Positions 9,174 through 21,770 of a DNA stretch of 32,000 bases are shown here, piece after piece. The first letter of the stretch is position 1. Every line of letters starts with the position of its first letter. Position numbers and translations under genes: made by a program. Origin of the DNA: Corynebacterium amycolatum (lineage in GTDB: Bacteria; Actinomycetota; Actinomycetes; Mycobacteriales; Mycobacteriaceae); NCBI RefSeq assembly GCF_049243625.1, contig NZ_CP046975.1. One strand, given 5' to 3'. The notes beneath the pieces are model-generated. The model saw nothing but the letters and a program-made list of their open reading frames with translations. It had not been told where the DNA came from and ran no database searches.

Positions 9174-10194
9174 CGCCCTGCCACTGGTTAATCCCGCGGT
9201 CGACGGCCCACTTGTCGATCTCCGCGAGTTCTTCATCGCTAAACGGCGCAGCGTCCAGGGCTCCGAGGCTGTTTTTCAGCTGCTCCACCGACGATGCCCC
9301 AATTAGGGCGGAGGTCACTTCGTCACGGCGAAGAACCCACGAGATGGCCATCTGTGCCAGGGACTGGCCTCGTCGTAAAGCAATGGCGTTGAGCTCACGG
9401 ATGGCGGTGAGCGTGTCGTCGTTGAGGAACCCCGAGTTCATCTTGTGCGCGCCGAGACGCGAGGCCTCCGGCACGCCATCTAGATAGCGGTCGGTGAGAA
9501 GCCCCTGCGCAAGCGCGGAAAAGGCGATGACGCCCATGCCTTCGTCGGCGCAGGTTGCCAGCAGTTCGTCCTCGATCCAGCGGTTGAACATGGAGTAGCT
9601 CGGCTGGTGAATAGTCAGCGGAGTGCCCAGCTCACGGGCGATTTTCTGTGCGCGGCGAGTGAGCTCGGGGGAGTAGGAGCTCACGCCGACGTAGAGCGCG
9701 CGTCCCGAGCGGACGAGGAAGTCGAGGGCGGCGACGGTTTCCTCGATAGGCGTATCCGGGTCGGGCCGGTGGTGGTAGAAAATGTCCACATAATCCAGGC
9801 CCATGCGCTTCAGCGAGGCATCGCAGCTGGCCACGAGGTATTTCCGCGAGCCGCCGAAGCCGTAGGGGCCATCCTGCATGTACCAACCGGCCTTGGAGGA
9901 AATGATCATTTCATCGCGGTAGGGAGCGAAATCCTTGGCCATGATGCGACCGAAATTCGCCTCCGCAGAGCCCTGTGGTGGGCCGTAATTGTTGGCGAGA
10001 TCGAAGTGCGTGACGCCGTGGTCGAACGCGGTGCGCAGGATTTCACGCTGCGTCTCGAGCGGCCGGTCATCACCAAAGTTATGCCAAAGTCCCAGCGTAA
10101 TGGCTGGAAGCTTTAGCCCCGTGTCGCCGGAGCGGTTGTACGGCATCGTTTCATAGCGGTTGTCATTGGCGTGGTACACGTCTGGATAAGCCAT
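9157..10194 (-). CDS. aldo/keto reductase, L-glyceraldehyde 3-phosphate reductase (YghZ-like)
   Basis: 345 aa. YNRSGDTGLKLPAITLGLWHNFGDD...AFDHGVTHFDLANNYGPPQGSAEANFGRI closely follows the E. coli YghZ-type AKR pattern. Confidence 0.9.
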   Translation of the reverse strand: MAYPDVYHANDNRYETMPYNRSGDTGLKLPAITLGLWHNFGDDRPLETQREILRTAFDHGVTHFDLANNYGPPQGSAEANFGRIMAKDFAPYRDEMIISSKAGWYMQDGPYGFGGSRKYLVASCDASLKRMGLDYVDIFYHHRPDPDTPIEETVAALDFLVRSGRALYVGVSSYSPELTRRAQKIARELGTPLTIHQPSYSMFNRWIEDELLATCADEGMGVIAFSALAQGLLTDRYLDGVPEASRLGAHKMNSGFLNDDTLTAIRELNAIALRRGQSLAQMAISWVLRRDEVTSALIGASSVEQLKNSLGALDAAPFSDEELAEIDKWAVDRGINQWQGATESV

Positions 10195-10340: not shown

Positions 10341-11669
10341 ATGACTTCAATAGCCACAGGCGATGCCGCTGGAACGCCAGCCGCAAACCCCGTCGCACAG
10401 ACTCAGAAAAATGGTGGGCCACGAGCATTACTGCACCGAATCCATGTCGTTGCAGGCATCCTCGTTGCGCCGCTACTCGTTATTGCAGCTGTCACAGGCG
10501 TGGCGTATGCCCTCGCGCCGAGCATAGAAAAGGTGGTTTACCACGAAGAACTAACTGCAACATCAGGCCTTCCCGCACAGCCTCTGGAAAAGCAGGTTGA
10601 GGTCGCGCAGCGCGTGCATCCTAAGCTGCCGGTGACCGCAGTGCAGGTCCCGGAAAAGCCGGGACAGACAACGCGAGTCATGTTCAACGATGAGCAGTTG
10701 AAGTCGGAGTCCTACCGGCATGCGGTGTTCGTCGACCCAGGCGACCTGAGCATCAAGGGCGACCTGGTGCAATACGGTTCCTCGGCGGCGCTGCCACTGC
10801 GGGCCTGGATCTCGGAAGGGCACCGCAGGCTCTGGATTGATAGCAACTTTGGTCGCCTCTACTCTGAGACAGCAGCATCCTGGATGGGCGCACTGGCTAT
10901 TGGTGGCCTCTGGCTCTGGTGGGACCGTTCGCGCCGCAAGCGGACACGGGGAACAAGTAAGAGGGCGCATCATATGCGTCGTCACGCGAATGTTGGTGTG
11001 GCGGTCAGCGTTGGACTTTTGTTCCTGACCGTCACCGGCCTGACGTGGTCGTGGGTGGCTGGAACGGGCATCGCGAAGCTGCGCGAGACGATGGACTGGT
11101 ACGCGCCGAAACCAGCTGTGACTGCGACTGCGCCTGCGAATTATGACTGGTCAGAGGCGGATAGTGTTATGAACCTCGCACGTGCCGAGGGGCTGTCCGG
11201 GAAAGTCGAACTGACACCACCGGAAGCTGGCACGGTGTGGATGGCCAAGGAAGCCCGCGAGGAATGGCGGATGGGCATTGAGACCGTCACCGTAGACGGG
11301 TCGACCGGAGCGATGGTTGACCGGATTCACTTTGCGGACTGGCCGCTGCCGGCAAAGCTGACCGAATGGCTGATTAACGCGCACATGGGCATCCTGTTTG
11401 GGTGGGTGAATCAGCTGGTCCTGGCGCTTATCGGTGTTGCTCTGCTGGCAATGATTGTGCGCGGGTACGCCATGTGGTTTGGGCGCGGTCGCGGTGGTCG
11501 TCCTGGTAGGCTCCCGTCGCCAACGCGCTGGCGAGATATTCGCCCGGGTGTCGCAGCGGCTGTTGTGGCGCTGTTGATTGCCTACTCGGTAGTTGCACCA
11601 CTGTTCGGTGTGACGCTCGTTGGCTTCGTGATTATTGATTGGGCCTGGCGGAAGCTCCGGAGAGGTTAG
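10341..11669 (+). CDS. PepSY-associated TM helix domain membrane protein
   Basis: 442 aa. N-terminal LLHRIHVVAGILVAPLLVIAAVTGVAYAL, a periplasmic segment, then C-terminal TM helices with INAHMGILFGW, typical of the PepSY_TM family. Confidence 0.8.
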   Translation: MTSIATGDAAGTPAANPVAQTQKNGGPRALLHRIHVVAGILVAPLLVIAAVTGVAYALAPSIEKVVYHEELTATSGLPAQPLEKQVEVAQRVHPKLPVTAVQVPEKPGQTTRVMFNDEQLKSESYRHAVFVDPGDLSIKGDLVQYGSSAALPLRAWISEGHRRLWIDSNFGRLYSETAASWMGALAIGGLWLWWDRSRRKRTRGTSKRAHHMRRHANVGVAVSVGLLFLTVTGLTWSWVAGTGIAKLRETMDWYAPKPAVTATAPANYDWSEADSVMNLARAEGLSGKVELTPPEAGTVWMAKEAREEWRMGIETVTVDGSTGAMVDRIHFADWPLPAKLTEWLINAHMGILFGWVNQLVLALIGVALLAMIVRGYAMWFGRGRGGRPGRLPSPTRWRDIRPGVAAAVVALLIAYSVVAPLFGVTLVGFVIIDWAWRKLRRG

Positions 11670-11689
11670 TGTAGGTTCTGTCGCCCCTC

Positions 11690-11767
11690 GGGTTCCCTGC
11701 GTGAGCGGGGATGTTCCGGTTTTATTGTGAGGGGCGATGTTATCCCCGCGAAAGCGGGGATTTTTCG
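11690..11767 (+). CRISPR. degenerate mini-array: psi-repeat 1 (11690-11718), 20-nt pseudo-spacer (11719-11738), psi-repeat 2 (11739-11767)
   Basis: psi-R1 GGGTTCCCTGCGTGAGCGGGGATGTTCCG matches the array repeat at 26/29 positions. Its last 20 nt are identical, and the one stem change is a C-to-T that keeps a U-G pair. psi-R2 GTTATCCCCGCGAAAGCGGGGATTTTTCG matches at 24/29, with an intact CCCCGC/GCGGGG stem and loop GTGA changed to GAAA (both GNRA). Same orientation as the main array. Confidence 0.65.
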
Positions 11768-11810
11768 TGTTAGCGGCACTTGCAGACGAGTCTATTGATT
11801 AAACAGCAAT

Positions 11811-11830
11811 GTTTTATTATGTGGGGTAAA
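11811..11830 (+). promoter_or_regulatory. site in the AT-rich cas3 upstream region matching the pseudo-spacer (possible Cascade binding/operator site)
   Basis: GTTTTATTATGTGGGGTAAA versus pseudo-spacer GTTTTATTGTGAGGGGCGAT: positions 1-8 identical, 15/20 overall. Preceded on the same strand by AAT. Lies 97-116 nt upstream of the cas3 ATG and overlaps a TATTAT hexamer (11815-11820). Confidence 0.3.
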
Positions 11831-11926
11831 AAAAGGGGTAGTTTCCATATTGAATGAAACTAAGGCCTGAGCTATCTTCGAGATTAGAACAGAGGCCGGA
11901 TAAAGGTTCGGCCGGACGGAGTCGTT

Positions 11927-14737
11927 ATGTCGAACATGGACTCGAACTTGGCGGATGCATTGTCTGAAGTAGCCCGCTTGCAGTGGGCTAAATGGGATCG
12001 GCAACGCGAAGAAGCGTTGAGTCTCGCGCAACATTTAAATGATTCCCAGGATGTGGCTTTTTATCTCTGGGATGAGTGGTTGCCGGAATCACTAAGGCAA
12101 GTACTTACCGATGAATTCGGCTCGAAGGGGCAGGCGCGTGCATGGTTGGCTTTTTACGCTGGGTGTCACGATATTGGGAAAGCATCGTATGCTTTCTCCG
12201 TCAAAGTTCCCGAACTGTATGACCGAGTATGCTCGTATGGGCTAGGTGCTGCGACAACACTTTCCCCCAAAGAATTACGTGGAGCACCCCACGGCGCTGT
12301 CGGCGCATATACATTGTGGGTTTGGTTGGTGGAAAACCATGGATTCGATGAAGATGCTGCCGACACATATGTTGCACCAATTGGTGGCCATCACGGCAAG
12401 TTTCCCGATGAGAATCTGCTGCATTCTGCCGAAGATTTCGTTGAGGAGCTCGAAGATGAAAAGTGGCAACAGATTCGTTTTGAATTCTTCGACGTCATGG
12501 CCACAAGGGCAGGTTTAACGGCGACTTATTTTGAACAACGCCGAGAACAAGGACTGTCAGCGTCAACGCAAATGTTGCTGACGGGCATTGTGGTCATGGC
12601 TGACTGGCTTGCTTCGAATACTGATTTATTCCCCCTGTCGATGTCTGATGCACCGTCGACAAACAGAAGCGATGATGCAATCAACAAGTTAAATCTTCCT
12701 GATCCGTGGGATCCTCGCCCGGAAAGTAGTGCGGATGACCTATTTCGCGCTCGGTTTGACCTGCCCGCTGGTGCCACCCCATACCCAGTTCAGCTTGACG
12801 CAGTAAAGCTTGTCGAAGAAGTAGATAAACCAGGCCTGTTGCTATTGGAAGCACCGACAGGCGAAGGCAAGACGGAGGCTGCGCTTGCGGTCGCGGAAGT
12901 TTTTGCAGCCAAGTTCGGCTGTGGTGGTGTGCAAGTCGCGTTGCCTACATGCGCCACATCAGATGCCATGTTTTCTCGTGTTTTGAAGTGGCTCGATCGT
13001 GCGATTGCGGAAGACCAGTTGGCCTCTGCGATGCTCACACATAGTCGCGCGCAGTTTAATGATGAATTCCAAGGTCTTAAGTTTCCGTCACAGAGTTTTT
13101 CGGCTATTTATGACGAAGAATATGGTGCCAATTCTAAAGAGCCTGCAGTTGAGGCTCATTGATGGCTACGATCTCGAAAAACTGCAGCGCTGGCAGACTT
13201 TACTGTTGGCACAATCGATCAGTTCCTTTTCTCGGCGCTGCAGTCGAAGCACATCATGTTGCGGCATCTGGGGCTTGCCGGAAAGGTATTGATTCTCGAT
13301 GAGGTGCATGCTGCAGACATTTACATGCAGCAGTATTTGTACCGCGCATTGGAATGGTGTGGTGCATATGGAGTTCCAGTCATTGCGTTGTCGGCAACGC
13401 TTCCACCGGATACTCGTTTTCATTTGATGGAGGCCTATGCCTCGGGAATTGCACAGTTAGAAAATGCGCAAATTTCCAACAAGATTCTTGGCGAGATGGA
13501 AGTTGCCAAAGACGAACGGGCTTATCCGCTTCTGACCTTTGTCAATGCTGATGGCGTATCTATCCGTAAGCCAGAAGCTTCTTCTCGCAGACAGGTTGTG
13601 TCACTCGAATACTGTGACGACTCATCTGTAGTTTCCATGTTGACGGAAGAGCTTCGTGATGGCGGTTGCGCTGTAGTCGTGTGTAATACAGTTCAGCGTG
13701 CCCAAACGCTTTACGACGAAATTTTTGCTGACGGCAGCTTCACTGATGAGGAAGTATTTTTGCTTCATTCACGCTTCGCTGCGGCAGATCGACGGGCTAA
13801 AGAAGAAGAACTTGTTGCCAAATATGGCAAGTCTGGTGTGCGTCCACGACGGGGAGTAGTGGTGTCAACACAAATTGTCGAGCAGTCCCTTGACTTGGAT
13901 TTTGACATTATGTTCAGTGATTTTGCGCCTTCGGACTTGCTAATTCAGCGGGCGGGTCGCCTCCACCGTCATGGCCGTAAAAACCGTCCGGAGCGACTTC
14001 AAGCGCCACGACTGGTGCTCTTCGGGGTCACTGAGATTAGGGATAGCGATGCTCCAGAGTTTGTGAGCGGTAGTAAACGGATTTATGGCACTGCGTTGTT
14101 GATGCGGACGGCTTCAGCTTTGATGGGGCGGAAGCAGTTTATATCGCCAGATCATGTCGCAGGGATAGTTCGTGAAACGTATGACATAGACGCACAGTGT
14201 CCAGTCAGTTGGCGAGAAGACTGGGATGCGGCGGTGCAGGAGCAGCGAGAAAGTGGAGAGAAGCTTGCTGAAAAAGCGCAACGGTCGCTCGGTCCATCGC
14301 CAAACGAAAAAGAGATGAGCCTGTGGTTCCGGCATGGGTCGGAAGAAGAGTTTCGTGGACAGTCGCAGGTCAGAGACATCGAAGAGTCAATCGAAGTAGT
14401 TCTTGTGGAACAGCGAGGCAGCGAACTCTATTCATTGCCGTGGCTGGAAAATCGCGGTGGTGAGTCACTGAGTGATGCCAATGGAGTTGACGACGAATTA
14501 GCACGTGAAGTTGCCAAATGCACTATTTCGCTTCCTTTTTGGCAAGTCGGGGGAGTGGACGAGTTCATCGCTGAATTGGAGCGGTTTGGTAGCCCCTCTT
14601 GGCAACTCAGCTCTTGGCTAAAGGGACTTCTTCCATTCCCTTTGGATGAAAGTGGGGAATGCCATGTGAACGGAGTTAGTTTTTCATACGATATGAACTA
14701 TGGTTTGCGGTCCATTCGAGAAAAGGAGTCGCAGTGA
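11927..14737 (+). pseudogene. cas3: type I-E Cas3 (HD nuclease + SF2 helicase) interrupted by an in-frame TGA at 13160-13162
   Basis: ORFs 11927-13162 and 13256-14737 share one reading frame. The frame is open from 13163 (WLRSRKTAALADFTVGTIDQFLFSALQSKHIMLRHLG...). The first part has the HD motif (GCHDIGKAS), motif I (EAPTGEGKTEAAL) and motif Ia (ALPTCATSDAM). The second part has motif II (DEVHA) and the remaining helicase and C-terminal domains. Combined length is about 935 codons, typical of Cas3e. Confidence 0.9.
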
Positions 14738-16368
14738 GCGGAGCTGAGCCGAGTTTTAATCTGCTCGATGAGCCCTGGATTAAAGTCACGGGACACGATG
14801 GCAGTGGTCGGGAATTAGGCCTTCGAGATATCTTTGCGCAGGCTGGTGAGTTAAAACGGATCTCTGGTGAGTCGCCAGCGCAGGATTTTGCGGTTTTGCG
14901 GGTGGCTCTTGCGGTTCTTTATCGCGCATTCAACTTTGGAGAAGATGTCAAGGAAAACCGTAAACAATGGGCGGCAGCATGGGAGGACAAAAAGCTGCCG
15001 TTAGAGCAGATTAACAACTATTTGGATGAATATTCGCACCGATTCGATTTGCTCGATCGGGAAGCCCCTTTCATGCAAACTCCTTCGTTGGCTACAAAAA
15101 GTGGGGAATGGAAGAGCCTTGAGGCAATTATTCCGGACTCACCAGAGCTAGGTGACCTCTTTTACCGGCGCTCAGCAATTGAGCCACTTCCATTGGCGGA
15201 AGCAGGTCGTTGGCTGGTTCATTGCCTAGCCTTTGATTTCTCAGGAATTAAATCAGGTGCAGTCGGTGACCCTCGCGTCAAAGGCGGGAAAGGTTATCCC
15301 ATTGGCATTGGTTGGGCAGGCTGGTTAGGCGGGACCGTACTCGAAGGACATAGTCTCCTTGAAACGCTGCTGCTAAATATCGTTGATCACAATCCCGCTG
15401 CCTGGGCCGGTGCTCCTATATGGGAATTGCCGGTTCCGACAGCGGCAGTCTCGGCCGAACCGCTTCCAAAAGGCCAACTCACTCTTATGACGTGGCCACA
15501 GCGACGTATCCGTCTTCATGTGGAAAATGGCATGGTTACCGGAGCACTTGTTTGCAATGGCGATCCGGTGGACTATCTGTATCAAGATGCACTCGAAATG
15601 ATGTCTCCATGGCGTTATAGCGAGCCGCAATCGAAGAAGGCCAAAGAAGATATCTACATGCCAAAGGCCATCAATCCTGATCGCGCGCTTTGGAGAGGAC
15701 TCTCGGCTGTGCTACCTGAAGCGGACGTTGATACGACCAAGGGGCGCACTGGTAGCGAAGTAAAAGTTTCAAAGCCCGCCGGTGTCATGGAAGCGTTGAA
15801 GACTCGTACAGGTCGCCGCAGTGGCGTTGTGCCGCAGAATTACCGGTTGAGTCTTCGGATGGTTGGTTACGAATATGGTCCTCAAATGGCTTCGTACAAC
15901 CGCCTATTAACAGACAACCTGGCGTTCCCTGCCCTTTTGGCTGCCGATAAACAAACCGTCCAATTCGTGTTGTTGGCCGCAAACCGAACACAAGATACAG
16001 CAGCCGAATTGCGAAAATTTGCCAATAATTTGGCCATTGCATCTGGTGGCGAACGCGGGGCTGCAGGCTTTAGTGCAGAGGGGTCCTTCTACTCGGATGT
16101 AGACCCAGTATTCCGCCAGTGGATTAATGGACTCACACCAGAAACAGACCTAAATAGTCATCTTGCGCTGTGGAGCGATCAATTGCGGAACTTAGCACTC
16201 ACGAAGGCTGCAGAGTTGATAGCGGGTGTGCCCGACAGCGCATGGTCAGGTCGTGAGGTTGATGAGCGTCAGTACAACGTGGGGCACGCTGAGCTGTGGT
16301 TCCGACGAGGTCTCGGAAAAGTTCTGCCACGGCCGGAAGAACAAAATTCTGGAGAGAGAGTTAAGTAA
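14734..16368 (+). CDS. casA: type I-E Cascade large subunit Cse1/CasA (Cas8e)
   Basis: 544 aa. The GTG start overlaps the cas3 stop (GTGA). N-terminal FNLLDEPWI is characteristic of Cse1. Position is immediately after cas3. Confidence 0.9.
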   Translation: MSGAEPSFNLLDEPWIKVTGHDGSGRELGLRDIFAQAGELKRISGESPAQDFAVLRVALAVLYRAFNFGEDVKENRKQWAAAWEDKKLPLEQINNYLDEYSHRFDLLDREAPFMQTPSLATKSGEWKSLEAIIPDSPELGDLFYRRSAIEPLPLAEAGRWLVHCLAFDFSGIKSGAVGDPRVKGGKGYPIGIGWAGWLGGTVLEGHSLLETLLLNIVDHNPAAWAGAPIWELPVPTAAVSAEPLPKGQLTLMTWPQRRIRLHVENGMVTGALVCNGDPVDYLYQDALEMMSPWRYSEPQSKKAKEDIYMPKAINPDRALWRGLSAVLPEADVDTTKGRTGSEVKVSKPAGVMEALKTRTGRRSGVVPQNYRLSLRMVGYEYGPQMASYNRLLTDNLAFPALLAADKQTVQFVLLAANRTQDTAAELRKFANNLAIASGGERGAAGFSAEGSFYSDVDPVFRQWINGLTPETDLNSHLALWSDQLRNLALTKAAELIAGVPDSAWSGREVDERQYNVGHAELWFRRGLGKVLPRPEEQNSGERVK

Positions 16369-16370
16369 CA

Positions 16371-16994
16371 ATGGCAGATATGAATAAGTCGCAGCCGCGC
16401 AGCTCCCTGCTGTACAGGTTCGTTGCCAGCAAAGCACAAAGCTTAGCAGGCGGTCTGGCCAACGAAACCTCGGAAGCTCGTGCCTCGCTTGCAGTGCTCC
16501 GCCGCTCACTGAGCGCGCCGCTGGCAGAGCAGCCCCAGGTGTGGTCAGAGGTATTCAATTCTTTCCCGGCGGAGCTTGAAGGCCCTCGAGATGAACCCGG
16601 CGTCTATGAAACTGCAGCGCACCTTGCATTGGCATTTTTTGCACTTCATCAGCAATCGAGAAGTGAATCCATGCATAAGGCCAACGAAGGATTCGGAACG
16701 GCCATTTGTCGTCTTCATCAAGTAGCAGGTGAAAACCAGAAAAAGGGTATTGAGCGACGCTTTAACGCGGTGCTTACTGCACAGACAACCGATGAGTTGG
16801 TTCACCATTTACGCGGACTAATTCAGATGCTGAGGAGTTACAGCATTCCGATGGATTACGGCCAGTTGGCTAATGATTTGGTGGCGTTGACCTATTCAGA
16901 TTCAGCTCGCCGTGTGCGACTTCGTTGGGCCCGGGATATGAACAGAGTTCCGCAATCCGAAATCGATGACCATGACCGCGCAGTAGAAAACTAG
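16371..16994 (+). CDS. casB: type I-E Cascade small subunit Cse2/CasB (Cas11)
   Basis: 207 aa, alpha-helical, between casA and cas7e in canonical I-E order. Starts 2 nt after the casA stop. Confidence 0.85.
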   Translation: MADMNKSQPRSSLLYRFVASKAQSLAGGLANETSEARASLAVLRRSLSAPLAEQPQVWSEVFNSFPAELEGPRDEPGVYETAAHLALAFFALHQQSRSESMHKANEGFGTAICRLHQVAGENQKKGIERRFNAVLTAQTTDELVHHLRGLIQMLRSYSIPMDYGQLANDLVALTYSDSARRVRLRWARDMNRVPQSEIDDHDRAVEN

Positions 16995-17014
16995 TAACAA
17001 CAGAAAGGCACATC

Positions 17015-18136
17015 ATGACCATCTACATTGATATTCACGCGCTCCAAACTGTCCCGCCATCAAACCTCAACCGAGACGACACCGGCAGTCCAAAGACTGC
17101 CAACTACGGCGGTGTACGACGGGCCCGAGTTTCCAGCCAAGCTTGGAAGCGCGCAGCGCGTAAGGAATTCGAGAACTTACTTGACCTAGATAAGTTGGGA
17201 CAGCGTACTCGCTTCAGTCCGTCATTGATTGCCGCGGAAATCATTTCGCAGGCTCCGGAGCTGGAAGAAAGTGCTGAGCATTTAGCGCTCAGTGTTCTGC
17301 AGAAGACAAAGCTGAAGCAGGCAAAGCCCAAGAAGGGCGAGGAAGATACGCGTATCCGTACTGAGTACCTGCTTTTTGTGTCCCGCGCGCAAATCAAAGC
17401 GCTAGCTGATCTGGCAATTCGGTACCAGGATGATTCCGCAAAAATTCCTGCGAAGGAAGCGAAGGAAGCATTAAATAACGAGCATTCAGTCGACATTGCA
17501 CTCTTCGGTCGCATGCTGGCTGATGCTCCAGACCTCAATGTTGATGCAACGTGCCAGTTCAATCATGCTATTTCTGTTCATCCGACAGTTACAGAGTTTG
17601 ACTACTTCACTGCGGTTGATGACAACGCAGCAGAGGACAACGCTGGTGCTGGCATGATCGGCACGGTGGAGTTCACCTCGTCTACGCTGTACCGTTACGC
17701 AACGGTCAACGCTAGTGAACTGGCTCAGTCTTTGGGGTCAAAGGAGGCGGCATCGGAAGCTGCTGGTGCGCTACTCAAGGCATTTGCGCTTTCGATGCCA
17801 ACTGGTAAGCAGAACACGTTTGCTAACCGAACGCGACCAGATTTGATCGTGGTTCAAGTTCGTGATGATCAGCCTGTCAATCTGTCAGAAGCTTTTGAAG
17901 ACCCAGTGGAAGCCACTCGTGGCCGCACAGAAAACGCATCCATCAAGCTGGCAGAGTATGCCGCCGAGCAGGACGGTGCATACGATTCTCATCCACTCGG
18001 AGGTGCATACCTTGCCACTGGTGGCGCAGCTACTGAAGCCGCAATGGAAAAGTTGAATGTCTTTGGCGATCGCACTGACATGGCTGGTTTGGTCAATTTA
18101 GTTGAGCAGGCCGTCATGGAGAAGGCCGAGTTCTAA
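17015..18136 (+). CDS. cas7e: type I-E Cascade backbone subunit Cas7e (CasC/Cse4)
   Basis: 373 aa. N-terminal IDIHALQTVPPSNLNRDDTGSPKTANYGGVRRARVSSQAWKRA is the Cas7e signature. Confidence 0.95.
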   Translation: MTIYIDIHALQTVPPSNLNRDDTGSPKTANYGGVRRARVSSQAWKRAARKEFENLLDLDKLGQRTRFSPSLIAAEIISQAPELEESAEHLALSVLQKTKLKQAKPKKGEEDTRIRTEYLLFVSRAQIKALADLAIRYQDDSAKIPAKEAKEALNNEHSVDIALFGRMLADAPDLNVDATCQFNHAISVHPTVTEFDYFTAVDDNAAEDNAGAGMIGTVEFTSSTLYRYATVNASELAQSLGSKEAASEAAGALLKAFALSMPTGKQNTFANRTRPDLIVVQVRDDQPVNLSEAFEDPVEATRGRTENASIKLAEYAAEQDGAYDSHPLGGAYLATGGAATEAAMEKLNVFGDRTDMAGLVNLVEQAVMEKAEF

Positions 18137-18837
18137 TGTCGGTTCTCCTCTTGAGGCTCGCTGGACCTATGCAAGCATGGGGAGATTCGAGTCGATTCAA
18201 TCACCGTGGTACTCGGAGAGAGCCGACGAAAAGCGGGGTAGTGGGTTTGCTTGCAGCTGCAAGCGGACGTCGCCGTACTGATGCGATTGAAGATTTGGCG
18301 TCACTCGGCTTTGGTGTTCGCACTGATCAGATTGGAAAGGTCGAGCGAGATTTCCAGACTGAAATTGATTGGCGCAACAACAAATCCAAGCCCCTGACGT
18401 ATCGTGATTATCTCACTGATGCCATCTTCATTGTTGCAATTGAAGGTCCACGCAGCGTCCTTGAAGGGCTTGCCGACGCGGTACAGCGTCCAGCTTTCCC
18501 TCTCTACTTAGGCCGCCGTGCATTCCAACCGACAGGAAGAATGGTTCTAGGAATTGAGGAAAAGACACTGGAAGACGCTCTGCGTAAGGCTCCTTGGCAA
18601 GCATCGACTTGGTATCGGAAACGTCAGCCAGAAGTAGTTTCGCTGCCAATTGTTCGAGATATGCGTGATGGTGAGACCTACGATGAGCTAATTCCGGATA
18701 CTCCAGTCAGCTTTGATCCACGAGAACGAAAACACGAGATGCGACCAGTGGTTCATGGATGGCTAGAGATTGAAAATAAAGAAGGAAAGCGTCCTGTGTT
18801 TTCTCACGATCCGATGTCGTTGCTGGGAGGTGACTAG
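18136..18837 (+). CDS. cas5e: type I-E Cas5e (CasD)
   Basis: 233 aa. LLLRLAGPMQAWGDSSRFNHRGTRREPTKSGVVGLLAAASG is the Cas5e N-terminal signature. The start overlaps the cas7e stop (TAATG). Confidence 0.9.
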   Translation: MSVLLLRLAGPMQAWGDSSRFNHRGTRREPTKSGVVGLLAAASGRRRTDAIEDLASLGFGVRTDQIGKVERDFQTEIDWRNNKSKPLTYRDYLTDAIFIVAIEGPRSVLEGLADAVQRPAFPLYLGRRAFQPTGRMVLGIEEKTLEDALRKAPWQASTWYRKRQPEVVSLPIVRDMRDGETYDELIPDTPVSFDPRERKHEMRPVVHGWLEIENKEGKRPVFSHDPMSLLGGD

Positions 18838-18840
18838 TCG

Positions 18841-19542
18841 ATGTACCTTTCACGCATGTTTCTCAATCCGCAACGGCGGGGGACTCGTAAGTTGTTAGCC
18901 AGCCCAGAGGCCATGCATGCCGCAGTGCTGTCAGCTTTTCCGCCAAATAGTGACCTAGTCAGCAATGATGGTCGTGTTTTGTGGCGAGTTGACCGGGAAG
19001 CCCATTCCCTTGCACTGTACGTGGTGAGTCCGGAAAAGCCATCATTTGAGCATCTACAGCAGCAAGCAGGCTGGGAAAATCAAGTATCGTGGGCGATACG
19101 TGAATACGAACCGGTCTTGGAAAGTATTTCCGTCGGAAAGCGATTTCGTTTTAGGTTGGCAGCGAATCCTGTGAAGTCAGTGCGTGACCCTCAGACGGGT
19201 AAGTCTAAGAGACTTGCGCATGTAACTGCAGCCCAACAGCGAAATTGGTTGTTAGAACGCGCTGAAGTTATGGGTGTGCGATTTCTACCGGCTGAGTTTT
19301 CACATGCAGATAGCCATGACGCCTCTAATGATGATTTAGCTGTTTCCGTTACAGGTAGGGAAGTAGTGAAGTTCCGTAGGCAGGGACGGATGGTCACGAT
19401 CGCTCGGGCACAGTTCGATGGAGCCATCGAGGTAGCTGATGCTGAAAGATTCCGCCGTGTTTTGACAAACGGAATTGGCAAAGCAAAAGGCTATGGTTGT
19501 GGGCTGCTGACAGTTGCACCAATGAGTTCGAATCGTAACTAG
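18841..19542 (+). CDS. cas6e: type I-E pre-crRNA endoribonuclease Cas6e (CasE/Cse3)
   Basis: 233 aa. MYLSRMFLNPQRRGTRKLLASPEAMHAAVLSAF and the C-terminal GIGKAKGYGCGLLTV motif are typical of Cas6e. Confidence 0.9.
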   Translation: MYLSRMFLNPQRRGTRKLLASPEAMHAAVLSAFPPNSDLVSNDGRVLWRVDREAHSLALYVVSPEKPSFEHLQQQAGWENQVSWAIREYEPVLESISVGKRFRFRLAANPVKSVRDPQTGKSKRLAHVTAAQQRNWLLERAEVMGVRFLPAEFSHADSHDASNDDLAVSVTGREVVKFRRQGRMVTIARAQFDGAIEVADAERFRRVLTNGIGKAKGYGCGLLTVAPMSSNRN

Positions 19543-19544
19543 AC

Positions 19545-20504
19545 ATGGCTGATATTCCAGGAGTACGTCCGTCCAAACCAGTTGAATTGACGAGAGCTGA
19601 AGACCGGATTTCTTTTCTCTATCTTGAGCACTGCACCATCGGTCGAGATTCTAATTCTCTCACTGCGACTGACGACCAGGGTGTCATGCATATACCCAGT
19701 GCAGCACTGGGAGTGCTTATGTTGGGCCCTGGTACACGGGTTACGCATCAGGCGATGGTGGTTATTGCAGATGCCGGTTCGACAATTGTCTGGGTGGGAG
19801 AAAACGGTGTGCGATATTACGCGCATGGCCGACCGATAGGTCGGTCGACCCGGCTTCTGGAACAGCAGGCAAAGCTAGTGAGCAACCGAAAAACCCGACT
19901 AGCGGTTGCGCGTGAAATGTATGGGATGCGTTTTTCCGGTGAGGATGTGGAATCCCTAAATATGCAGCAATTACGGGGCCGAGAGGGTGCTCGGGTTCGT
20001 TCGGTTTATAGGGAATGGTCAAAGATAACCGGGGTTGAGTGGTCGCGCCGTGAATACCGCCCTGACGATTTCTCGGATGGCACGCCAATCAGTCAGGCCC
20101 TCTCAGCAGCACATTCTTGCCTGTACGGTGTCGTGCATGCCGTGATAGTTTCCCTGGGAATGAGTCCTGGCTTGGGGTTTGTGCACACGGGGCACGACCG
20201 CGCATTTGTTTATGACATTGCGGATTTGTATAAGGCAGACATAACGATTCCAGTTGCTTTTACTGTGGTTTCTGAGCTTGGAACCGAGGTTGATACTCAA
20301 ACACTAAGCACTACGGTTAGGCGACATGTGCGTGATCGGATTCGTGAAGAAAAAGTTATTTCGCGCTGCGTCAAGGATCTAAAGCTCTTAATGAAAGATC
20401 CTCTTGAAAACGAGGAATTCGGCGAAGTTATCGAATTGTGGGATTACAGCCGCGGCACGATTAAAGGTGGTACAAACTACTCCTCCGGAGAACCACCATG
20501 GTGA
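19545..20504 (+). CDS. cas1e: type I-E integrase Cas1e
   Basis: 319 aa. Canonical position and Cas1e-like sequence (ISFLYLEHCTI..., GFVHTGHDRAFVYDIADLYK). Confidence 0.95.
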   Translation: MADIPGVRPSKPVELTRAEDRISFLYLEHCTIGRDSNSLTATDDQGVMHIPSAALGVLMLGPGTRVTHQAMVVIADAGSTIVWVGENGVRYYAHGRPIGRSTRLLEQQAKLVSNRKTRLAVAREMYGMRFSGEDVESLNMQQLRGREGARVRSVYREWSKITGVEWSRREYRPDDFSDGTPISQALSAAHSCLYGVVHAVIVSLGMSPGLGFVHTGHDRAFVYDIADLYKADITIPVAFTVVSELGTEVDTQTLSTTVRRHVRDRIREEKVISRCVKDLKLLMKDPLENEEFGEVIELWDYSRGTIKGGTNYSSGEPPW

Positions 20505-20863
20505 CAATAGTTTTGACGAGCTGTCCTGCCGGATTGCGGGGTCATTTAACTCGATGGCTTGAGGAAATCGCCCCAGGTGTATTTGTTGGGAAAGTTAACT
20601 CTCGTCTCCGTGACATCTTGTGGGGCCTGGTCATCGAAATGGTCGGCAGTGGTCGTGCCATAATGGTTTATCCGGATCGGAATGCCGAACAAGGGTATGC
20701 CTACAAGGTGCATCGCCACGACTGGGAGGTCGTCGATGTCGAGGGGTTGTCGCTGATCCGGCGTCCGTTCAAAAACAGGACTAAAGGTGATGTCGGATTA
20801 AAGCCGGGATGGTCAAATCCGGCTAAACGACGTCGTGCCCGACATGCTCGTCGTTCGGAGTGA
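20498..20863 (+). CDS. cas2e: type I-E Cas2e
   Basis: 121 aa. MVTIVLTSCPAGLRGHLTRWLEEIAPGVFVG is a Cas2e-type N-terminus. The start overlaps the cas1e 3' end by 7 nt. Confidence 0.9.
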   Translation: MVTIVLTSCPAGLRGHLTRWLEEIAPGVFVGKVNSRLRDILWGLVIEMVGSGRAIMVYPDRNAEQGYAYKVHRHDWEVVDVEGLSLIRRPFKNRTKGDVGLKPGWSNPAKRRRARHARRSE

Positions 20864-20907: not shown

Positions 20908-21728
20908 GTTTTCCCCGCGTGAGCGGGGATGTTCCCGACATGGACGCTGTCCGTCGTGAGCTGGAAGCGTTTTCCCCGCGTGAGCGGGGATGTTCCGCAA
21001 GCAGAGACGACAGGGTGTAGGCGCTGTCCGTTTTCCCCGCGTGAGCGGGGATGTTCCGTCATGGCGTATCTGCACCGCCTCTTTTTCCGTGTTTTCCCCG
21101 CGTGAGCGGGGATGTTCCGTCCATGTTTGGCAGCACCACGGTGAGCCCCCGGTTTTCCCCGCGTGAGCGGGGATGTTCCGCCACCGATAAGGCAAGTCAC
21201 CATTAAGAAACGGTTTTCCCCGCGTGAGCGGGGATGTTCCCACCAGGCTCCGACGCGGGAACCCACTCCCCGCGTTTTCCCCGCGTGAGCGGGGATGTTC
21301 CCGGCACAGGCTCAACCGAAGCCGGATTGTCATAGTTTTCCCCGCGTGAGCGGGGATGTTCCGGGCATGACGAAGGCGGAGCTTATCGCCGCCGTGTTTT
21401 CCCCGCGTGAGCGGGGATGTTCCCAGAACCGCGTTGGGGTGGACTACCCCGTGTGAGTTTTCCCCGCGTGAGCGGGGATGTTCCGACTAGTTACTTAGCA
21501 ATAAACATGGCAAGCAAGTTTTCCCCGCGTGAGCGGGGATGTTCCAAGTGTTCCAATCACCACCCACAACCAAGTAAGGTTTTCCCGCGTGAGCGGGGAT
21601 GTTCCCGGCATCAGGCTGCTTGAGGCTGGCTTGTGGGAGTTTTCCCCGCGTGAGCGGGGATGCTCCTCATATCCGCCAGCGACACAGTACCGTCCGTCGG
21701 TTGTCCCCGCGTGGACGGGGATGTTCCG
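20908..21728 (+). CRISPR. type I-E CRISPR array, 14 repeats / 13 spacers, 61-nt period
   Basis: Repeat starts at 20908, 20969, 21030, 21091, 21152, 21213, 21274, 21335, 21396, 21457, 21518, 21579, 21639 and 21700. Consensus GTTTTCCCCGCGTGAGCGGGGATGTTCC[N], with stem CCCCGC/GCGGGG and loop GTGA. Spacers are 32 nt. The same architecture as the E. coli I-E repeat places the array on the + strand. Confidence 0.97.
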
Positions 21729-21770
21729 GTTTGATTATGAGGGGGATAGTATCCCCGCGTAAACACTCAG
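21729..21770 (+). repeat. array trailer: pseudo-spacer GTTTGATTATGAGGGGGATAGT plus a truncated repeat (ATCCCCGCGTAAAC)
   Basis: Homologous to 11719-11750 upstream of cas3 (GTTTTATTGTGAGGGGCGATGTT-ATCCCCGCG). The 3' half of the repeat stem is missing here. Confidence 0.55.

Follow-up and report, generated by a model that had tools for sequence, protein, structure and literature searches.

The 32,000-nucleotide (nt) stretch of Corynebacterium amycolatum contig NZ_CP046975.1 analysed here (the window; coordinates refer to it unless another locus is named) contains, upstream of the cas3 gene of a type I-E CRISPR (clustered and regularly interspaced short palindromic repeats) locus, a degenerate mini-array of two repeat-like sequences around one spacer-like sequence. 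Our results suggest that this mini-array (11690-11766) encodes a CreR-type autoregulatory RNA, resembling a CRISPR RNA (crRNA), for the cas3-to-cas2 operon, a reading to which we assign a probability of roughly 0.8. The evidence that carries it is comparative and amounts to a natural experiment, in which a guide and a target box before cas3 have co-evolved at the positions that Cascade would pair, with freedom at every sixth base.

The mini-array begins 20 nt past the stop codon of a PepSY_TM gene, its upstream neighbour in the window (end 11669), finishes 160 nt before cas3 and has no acquisition leader. Its elements and those of the putative target are the following.

11690-11717, plus strand: psiR1, a degenerate repeat (GGGTTCCCTGCGTGAGCGGGGATGTTCC), 25/28 identical to the array repeat.
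11711-11718, plus strand: predicted 8-nt 5' handle ATGTTCCG, identical to the 3' end of the repeat.
11719-11738, plus strand: psiS, the 20-nt pseudo-spacer or guide (GTTTTATTGTGAGGGGCGAT).
11739-11766, plus strand: psiR2, a degenerate repeat (GTTATCCCCGCGAAAGCGGGGATTTTTC), 23/28 identical to the array repeat.
11711-11759, plus strand: predicted mature crRNA-like RNA of 49 nt (8 + 20 + 21), from the I-E processing rule applied to sequence and fold.
11808-11810, plus strand: AAT on the non-target strand, resembling a protospacer-adjacent motif (PAM).
11811-11830, plus strand: target (protospacer-like) site GTTTTATTATGTGGGGTAAA, on the same strand as psiS.

An earlier reading made from the letters alone (the sequence-only reading) had described two decayed repeats around a 20-nt pseudo-spacer 20 nt after the PepSY stop, and both repeats are present there. 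The non-random pattern of decay that it emphasised is likewise seen in the window. The last 19 nt of psiR1 match the repeat perfectly, and its stem change from C to T still pairs as U-G, leaving a 6-bp hairpin (one U-G pair) whose end coincides with the predicted Cas6e cleavage site; psiR2 keeps the CCCCGC/GCGGGG stem intact around a GAAA loop. A terminator scan picks out the psiR2 hairpin (11742-11761; an 8-bp stem with 6 GC pairs, then TTTTT) as an intrinsic terminator. Its sequence is compatible with a dual role, as terminator and as a 3' hairpin of the Cas6e type. The precursor is predicted to fold with both hairpins as expected (minimum free energy -42.4 kcal/mol, z = -4.1). In the same predicted fold, CCCCUC at 11684-11689 pairs with guide positions 11-16 (GAGGGG, 11729-11734), which may be incidental. 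No Rfam family matched at its gathering score, the sole match being a sub-threshold one to anti-hemB (18.8 bits vs 49.5).

The same-strand site behind AAT, with a seed match of 8/8 and 15/20 overall, was confirmed at 11811-11830. Positions 1-8 are identical between psiS and target, and the mismatches fall at 9, 12, 17, 18 and 20, of which the first (guide G, target A) would be an rG-dT wobble. The two boxes lie 92 nt apart in unrelated flanks. Nowhere in the 32-kb window does psiS find a better match, the only others of at least 14/20 being at 9640 (no seed) and in the array trailer at 21729. Within the AT-rich 160 nt upstream of cas3, however, 286/20000 dinucleotide shuffles (1.4%) also produced an 8-nt seed match; the match is only moderately improbable and the window alone is weak evidence. 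Moreover, a paralogue of the mini-array, missed by the sequence-only reading, ends the main array.

21700-21759, plus strand: trailer paralogue, consisting of the last repeat, a 20-nt GTTTGATTATGAGGGGGATA and a truncated repeat GTATCCCCGCG.

Given the shuffle rate and this paralogue, the question needs comparison with other loci.

Upstream regions of cas3 were gathered via Cas3 homologues, using a protein search and contig look-ups, and a scan of genome contigs with the Cas3 N-terminus gave one close relative. Eight Corynebacterium-type loci share the architecture, at Cas3 identities down to 45%. Guides and targets in this set include the following (percentages are Cas3 identities).

Window: guide GTTTTATTGTGAGGGGCGAT; target AAT + GTTTTATTATGTGGGGTAAA.
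L001 (strain 1285_CVIT; Cas3 N-terminus 99% identical to that of the window): guide ATTTGATTATGAGGGGCGAT; target AAC + ATTTGATTATGTGGGGTACC.
L008-L010 (95% to the Cas3 of L001): guide GTTTTATTGTGAGGGGCGAT; target AAT + GTTTTATTATGTGGGGTTTA.
L011 (67%): guide AGTTATAGGGTTGGGGTGGC; target AAC + AGTTAAAGTGTAGGGGTAAA.
L012 (64%): guide ATCTATTTATGAGGGGCAGC; target AAT + ATCTATTTATGTGGTGTAAA.
L014 (57%): guide GTTTAGGTTTGAGGGTCAGC; target AAT + GTTTATGTTTGGGGGTCAAA.

Given the near-identity of its Cas3 N-terminus to that of strain 1285_CVIT, the window was read as coming from Corynebacterium vitaeruminis. Between L001 and the window, positions 1 and 5 have changed in guide and target alike. A metagenome contig (L035; Cas3 N-terminus 90%) has the window's guide and a target whose G at position 9 removes the mismatch seen in the window. 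Across strains of C. vitaeruminis and relatives, the seeds GTTTTATT, ATTTGATT, ATCTATTT, AGTTA.AG and GTTTA.GT occur, each with its own matching target behind AA+C/T. Alignment of related loci for conservation of handle and hairpin, which the sequence-only reading had suggested, showed that both are kept: the handle pattern ATGnnCC is retained in all lineages found through Cas3 homology, and psiR1 of L011 has a compensatory stem, CCCCTCC/GGAGGGG. L003 showed no mini-array, and L004 holds at most a badly decayed unit; the sequence of L016 starts inside a repeat.

A second clade was recovered by scanning metagenome contigs for a pattern of handle, 20-24 nt and repeat start, which returned approximately 36 loci. 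These comprise 22 distinct guide/target pairs and belong partly to Actinomyces; in one subclade, Cas6e is identical to an NCBI protein named as uncultured Actinomyces. The Cas3 proteins of this clade are 31-34% identical to that of the window, and in every contig of sufficient length (tblastn, 19 contigs) the unit precedes a full I-E operon of the same orientation. The layout repeats that of the Corynebacterium loci: after the psiR1 hairpin and its handle (ATGnnCC) come a guide of 20 nt, for example ATGCAGTGCATTAGGAGGAC, and psiR2 in the form GTTTTCCCCGCGAAAGCGGGGATTTTT, with the target on the same strand, 93-106 nt after the guide start and behind AAC, AAG or AAT. The seeds (ATGCA, ATGTA, GTGTA, GTGCA, ATGCG, ACGTA and ATGTG) each equal those of their own targets. 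Approximately 45 nt upstream of psiR1 a TGnTAnnnT element (extended -10) is conserved, and its presence there argues for an independent transcript. Taking both clades together, hairpins are predicted in 28/28 distinct units, the 3' strand of the psiR1 stem ending at, or within two bases of, the Cas6e cut position, while psiR2 is consistently unlike the canonical repeat, with a GNRA-type loop and a T-rich tail replacing ATGTTCC.

In type I Cascade every sixth guide base is flipped out, and the distribution of matches follows that rule. Targets of the second clade were taken from alignment columns rather than by seed matching. All 22 of its pairs match at positions 1-5, 7-8 and 10-11, with 13 matching at position 9 and 21-22 at positions 13-14; position 6 matches in none and position 12 in 2, and beyond position 15 agreement is close to chance. 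The eight Corynebacterium pairs agree in 8/8 at positions 1-5, 5/8 at 6, 8/8 at 7 and 7/8 at 8, then in 0/8 at 12, 7-8/8 at 13-16 and 0-3/8 at 17-20. Changes shared by guide and target fall at positions 1-5, 7-8, 10-11 and 13-14. When the pairing was permuted, cognate pairs gave 241/242 and 86/88 matches as against shuffled means of 211 and 60.4 (maxima 225 and 82), and 0/20000 permutations reached the observed values. Neighbour-joining trees were built from the sequence downstream of the target and double changes counted by Fitch parsimony, matched states only. At paired positions, guide and target share approximately 12 changes in the second clade and 13 in the Corynebacterium clade, about 25 inferred double substitutions in all; at positions 6, 12 and 15-20 each side changes on its own. 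These counts are rough, since the trees are imperfect and recombination is possible, but the contrast between position classes is still clear.

Such a mismatch pattern reads as the every-sixth-base signature of Cascade pairing. The sequence-only reading had discounted mismatches at flipped-out bases in one locus; the argument now holds as a conserved rule, mismatches clustering across loci at 6, 12 and beyond 16. Its CreR/CreA-like interpretation predicted guide-target co-variation, which orthologous loci of both clades display, and the independent drift of pseudo-spacer and target that would have spoken for decay was not found in them, seeds matching within each locus.

The flank of the target is constrained as well. 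AA at -3/-2 is invariant in 30/30 distinct pairs, and the -1 base is C, G or T. In I-E systems the base that opens a spacer comes from position -1 of the PAM. Array spacers open (base 29 of the unit), like target -1, with C, G or T, A occurring in only 2/64 and 11/540. A comparison of 620 spacers with all loci of the comparison gave no match outside arrays.

Four other explanations were weighed against the CreR-type reading. In the first, psiR2 would be the terminator of the upstream gene, and the two boxes duplicate operators for a DNA-binding regulator of cas3. It could draw on the terminator score of psiR2, which lies 70 nt after the PepSY_TM stop, and on a conserved GGGG-TAAA-GGGGGTA by the target that could be a protein site. 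The upstream gene varies, however (PepSY_TM in the window but UDG in L017, and different again in other loci), while the unit travels with cas3, and the second clade has its own extended -10 before psiR1. Operators, furthermore, normally do not change at several positions among strains of one species, and period-6 mismatches, a handle-adjacent register and an AA PAM are specific to Cascade. We consider this explanation improbable.

A CreTA-type module, in which the guide would repress a small toxin (RNA or peptide) encoded between target and cas3 and thus addict the cell to Cascade, has a similarly slim chance. CreA elements are of the same design, and the 97 nt between target and cas3 accommodate a conserved inverted repeat (11894-11913) and a 40-codon open reading frame (ORF) from 11854. 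That ORF is not kept in L012, L011 or L014, and no conserved ORF exists between target and cas3; a toxic small RNA would still be compatible with the sequence. The interval, with the ribosome-binding site of cas3 at its end, is short, and the promoter of one second-clade subclade stands only about 55 nt from the start of cas3.

The third explanation is neutral: the mini-array would be the remnant of an array once situated upstream, or a copy of the trailer, and the target a further-decayed copy resembling it by descent. The mini-array is indeed paralogous to the trailer at 21700-21759 and lacks a leader, and GGGGTAGTTTCC after the target is faintly like the 3' end of the repeat. The trailer unit is a likely evolutionary donor or sister copy; mini-array and trailer unit appear to share ancestry, perhaps with the target too, and this shared ancestry gives the decayed-copy alternative, which the sequence-only reading had raised for the target, real weight. 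As an account of origin it may hold, yet it cannot explain the co-variation. Copies that decay independently should also drift independently, yet seeds that vary among lineages match within each locus; the architecture persists where Cas3 has diverged to approximately 31-34% identity; and the flanks of psiS and target are unrelated. The trailer copy itself, the true neutral comparator, does drift. Its L001 counterpart (L001 20631-20690, GTTTAATCATGAGGGGGATA) differs in sequence from that of the window, and neither copy (window GTTTGATT..., L001 GTTTAATC...) follows the target upstream of cas3, the seed mismatches to it being at position 5 in the window and at positions 1, 5 and 8 in L001. The drift of the trailer copy serves as an internal control for guide-target matching, and a wholly neutral history is very hard to credit.

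Equally hard to credit is concerted evolution by gene conversion between two paralogous boxes of 16-20 nt with no RNA function, which would likewise yield co-variation and which the 92-nt spacing, shared strand and common G/T-rich cores might favour, as conversion would make positions 6 and 12 alike too and these differ (0/22 and 2/22 matching; 0/8 at 12 in Corynebacterium) while 5, 7, 11 and 13 match and co-vary, identity starts exactly after AA+N and ends by position 16, and homologous recombination usually needs a tract longer than the 16 nt or fewer available here between unrelated flanks.

Separately from these alternatives, psiS with the next 3 nt (11719-11741) aligns to the canonical repeat at 18/23 with one 3-nt gap, and 0/2000 shuffles score as well, a resemblance that the neutral explanation could also claim. 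It is significant in C. vitaeruminis and not in L011, L012 or L014. The guide may itself descend from a repeat minus its 5' stem half, which bears on origin and not on function. In the second clade, where one locus with a complete array end (L136) was examined, a trailer unit with a 20-nt spacer was not seen.

Under the CreR-type reading, the mini-array would be transcribed on the plus strand and cut by Cas6e at the base of the psiR1 hairpin, creating the 8-nt handle AUGUUCCG, while the psiR2 hairpin would act as 3' handle and, together with the U run behind it, as terminator. The product, a crRNA-like RNA of approximately 49 nt with a 20-nt guide, would load a Cascade with probably four rather than six Cas7 subunits, and this complex would recognise AAT + 11811-11830 upstream of cas3, pairing over positions 1-16 and skipping the flipped-out 6 and 12. 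With a short guide and an unmatched 3' end, the R-loop could not lock and Cas3 would not be licensed. Cascade would then sit as a repressor of the promoter for the cas3-cse1-cse2-cas7-cas5-cas6e-cas1-cas2 operon, the outcome being negative feedback on the level of Cas proteins. Stable binding without licensing of Cas3 is the outcome expected by analogy, because effective pairing spans only 14-16 nt and the 3' end of the guide is unmatched. We infer the direction (repression) and size of the effect from the I-E, I-F and I-B cases that have been studied.

At 20 nt, its length in 28/30 distinct loci, the guide falls short of 32 nt by 2x6. In Escherichia coli each Cas7 covers 6 nt of spacer, and a shortened crRNA yields a Cascade with fewer Cas7; with a 14-nt spacer there was no interference, while primed adaptation was robust, which the authors read as residual target attack (PMC5159557). 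It is conceivable, though we regard it as rather doubtful, that a length fixed in two actinobacterial orders marks a mini-Cascade made for this purpose, two Cas7 subunits smaller, whose structure would keep it from licensing Cas3 and leave it only the role of repressor of the whole cas3-to-cas2 operon, in a circuit copied from the terminal array unit whose donor still stands at the C. vitaeruminis array trailer.

The window holds a complete type I-E locus, as judged from ORF coordinates and Pfam matches.

11927-14737, plus strand: cas3 (Pfam Cas3_HD, Cas3-like_C_2, Cas3_C).
14734-20863, plus strand: cse1-cse2-cas7-cas5-cas6e-cas1-cas2, overlapping or tightly spaced behind cas3 (ORF coordinates, Pfam).
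20908-21727, plus strand: main I-E CRISPR array, 14 repeats with a period of 61.

The array repeat has the consensus GTTTTCCCCGCGTGAGCGGGGATGTTCC, its 28 nt being followed by a variable 29th base. From their spacing, the genes from cas3 to cas2 appear to form a single operon with no internal promoter gap. Since there are no such gaps, the target would adjoin the only promoter region available to the whole operon, whichever of the two candidates below (P1 or P2) is used.

11667-11677, plus strand: TAGTGT / TAGGTT, weak candidates for the -10 hexamer of the mini-array transcript, in overlap with the stop codon of PepSY_TM.
11839-11844, plus strand: P1, an alternative -10 candidate (TAGTTT) with the same target-to-hexamer geometry as the second-clade promoter.
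11850-11878, plus strand: P2, the best-conserved cas3 promoter candidate, with -35 TTGAAT (11850-11855), a 17-nt spacer and -10 TATCTT (11873-11878).

A sigma-70 consensus scan of 11500-12000 found no site at threshold, P2 scoring 8/12 matches; the promoter calls therefore rest on conservation across lineages. In a six-lineage alignment TTG and TA...T of P2 are invariant, with 59-62 nt from target to -10, and the TAnnnT of P1 is kept only in C. vitaeruminis strains and L011. The second-clade target spans approximately -40 to -21 of the conserved TGnTAnnnT promoter, its positions 6-11 (TTGCAT/TTGTAT) being the -35 hexamer, a geometry that would make for straightforward occlusion. The window target is at approximately -74 to -55 relative to P2, 19 bp upstream of the conserved -35. 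Just downstream of, and partly inside, the target, a G-run motif (GGGG-TAAA-GGGGGTA, 11835-11844) is conserved in L001, L011, L012, L014 and L017 and might belong to a -10 region, act as an UP-like element or bind a protein.

Several observations weigh against the CreR-type reading or limit its reach. Repression geometry is less obvious in the Corynebacterium clade than in the second, because the target there ends 16-19 bp upstream of the best-conserved -35/-10 with no overlap. The metagenome pattern pre-selected handle, hairpin and spacing, so that only the loci gathered by Cas3 homology give an unbiased view of these features, and psiR1 stems of the second clade are only 4-5 bp. AAT/AAC differs from the canonical AAG of E. 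coli, and an interference PAM was not derived, the arrays of the window and L001 giving only chance-level matches against 50,697 phage records. Among related loci, L017 (Cas3 45%) keeps the architecture with a weak pair, approximately 12/20, and L013 and L015 (Cas3 58-60%), whose upstream sequences are short (L013 1-103; L015 5030-5207), have no mini-array or repeat-like unit; in both, cas3 stands in a different neighbourhood, behind a glycoside hydrolase gene. As these two loci are without the element and the pair of L017 is weak, the circuit appears to be dispensable and able to decay.

Decay may extend to the locus of the window strain, where an in-frame TGA (Trp to stop) at 13160-13162 splits cas3 between its HD and helicase parts. 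This codon reads TGG in L001, and the metagenome strains L008-L010 encode a full Cas3 of 936 amino acids; the window cas3 either is a pseudogene or contains a sequencing error. The Cascade genes look intact.

Three further features deserve mention. An inverted repeat, GGCCG(10 nt)CGGCC, occupies 11894-11913 in the presumed 5' untranslated region of cas3, just ahead of the ribosome-binding site. Strains of C. vitaeruminis share this conserved repeat, five lineages retain CCGGAT, and a GC-rich hairpin is also found in the cas3 leader of the second clade. An orphan mini-array on the minus strand of L020 (630-720), with guide GTTTTCTTGTGAGGGGCTGC and a terminator-like psiR2, has no cas3 or target downstream, and its cas operon may have been lost. 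Finally, L062 (3451-3642; also L138 and L042) contains a cas-less array of four repeats with spacers of approximately 20 nt and a period of 48-50. The first spacer, ATGTAGTGTGTTAGATAATC, carries the seed of second-clade guides and targets, and nearby ORFs match phage families (replication initiation, repressors, transglycosylase/endolysin). From its sequence, this looks like a Cracr-type array of a mobile element against host CreR targets.

If correct, the CreR-type reading adds actinobacterial I-E systems, those of Corynebacterium and of human-associated bacteria of the Actinomyces type, to the range of crRNA-like autoregulation of cas genes. With one promoter before cas3 driving nuclease, Cascade and adaptation genes, the whole immune system would be under a single RNA-guided feedback loop, and those who use or derepress endogenous I-E systems in these bacteria would need to account for the element. 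The trailer paralogue, in addition, supports the published idea that such regulators descend from the terminal array unit.

Regulatory mini-arrays of the CreR kind have been published for I-E, I-F1, I-B, I-D and V-A systems. As described in a preprint, I-E CreR represses PcasA through Cascade (bioRxiv 10.1101/2023.03.10.532045), and the Salmonella and E. coli I-E cases presented in two preprints lie between cas3 and casA/cas8e and target PcasA (bioRxiv 10.1101/2023.03.10.532045; 10.1101/2023.03.03.530964). The text of Shmakov et al. (10.1101/2023.03.03.530964) counts 25-29% of the untranslated regions beside I-E cas3 genes as containing repeat-like sequences, describes mini-arrays with short spacers and mismatches at 6 and 12, and proposes their origin from the terminal array unit. 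The main text of that preprint describes no actinobacterial example. Its mini-arrays (I-E, I-F1, I-B, I-D) resemble the window element in their short spacer, the mismatches at 6 and 12 and the degenerate distal repeat. They target a cas promoter with a cognate PAM, and the window target is likewise by a putative cas promoter, behind a PAM-like AAT. The I-E and I-F1 examples worked through in the preprint differ in being located between cas3 and cas8, transcribed away from cas3 and aimed at Pcas8.

The closest counterpart is the I-E CreR of Salmonella enterica (Liu et al.). Both are degenerate two-repeat mini-CRISPRs with no leader and no toxin gene, in which psiR1 keeps the 8-nt 5' handle and psiR2 the 3' handle, and both have a partial, seed-anchored match to a PAM-flanked site by a cas promoter. 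The Salmonella RNA acts through I-E Cascade; for the window element the function is read from sequence. Salmonella CreR lies between cas3 and casA, and its target at PcasA, approximately 140 bp upstream of casA, offers 15 consecutive matches behind an AAG PAM. The window unit, by contrast, is upstream of and co-directional with cas3, so that operon control would include cas3 and cas1-cas2, and has a 20-nt guide, an AAT/AAC triplet and a terminator-type psiR2.

More distant systems share the logic. In the CreTA of Haloarcula hispanica I-B a partially complementary crRNA-like RNA also makes Cascade a transcriptional repressor, and represses Pcas8 as well, but CreA guards a toxin gene, creT, with none evident in the window, and the system is of subtype I-B in an archaeon. 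The II-A tracr-L and the Francisella scaRNA are analogous in that a non-canonical, short-match guide redirects the effector to repress a promoter, including that of its own cas operon; they differ in their class 2 single-protein effectors, their origin from trans-activating crRNA and the absence of Cas6 processing. Cracr arrays (bioRxiv 10.1101/2024.10.29.618823) have the same short-spacer crRNA-like design, with seeds copying host CreR, but are carried on phages and plasmids and used against the host, whereas the window element is chromosomal and stands at the cas locus. The principle is thus known from CreR-type elements. New here are the position upstream of and co-directional with cas3 and the predicted control of an operon that includes cas3 and cas1-cas2, and the element is further distinguished by its 20-nt guide, its terminator-type psiR2 and the donor-like paralogue kept at the array trailer.

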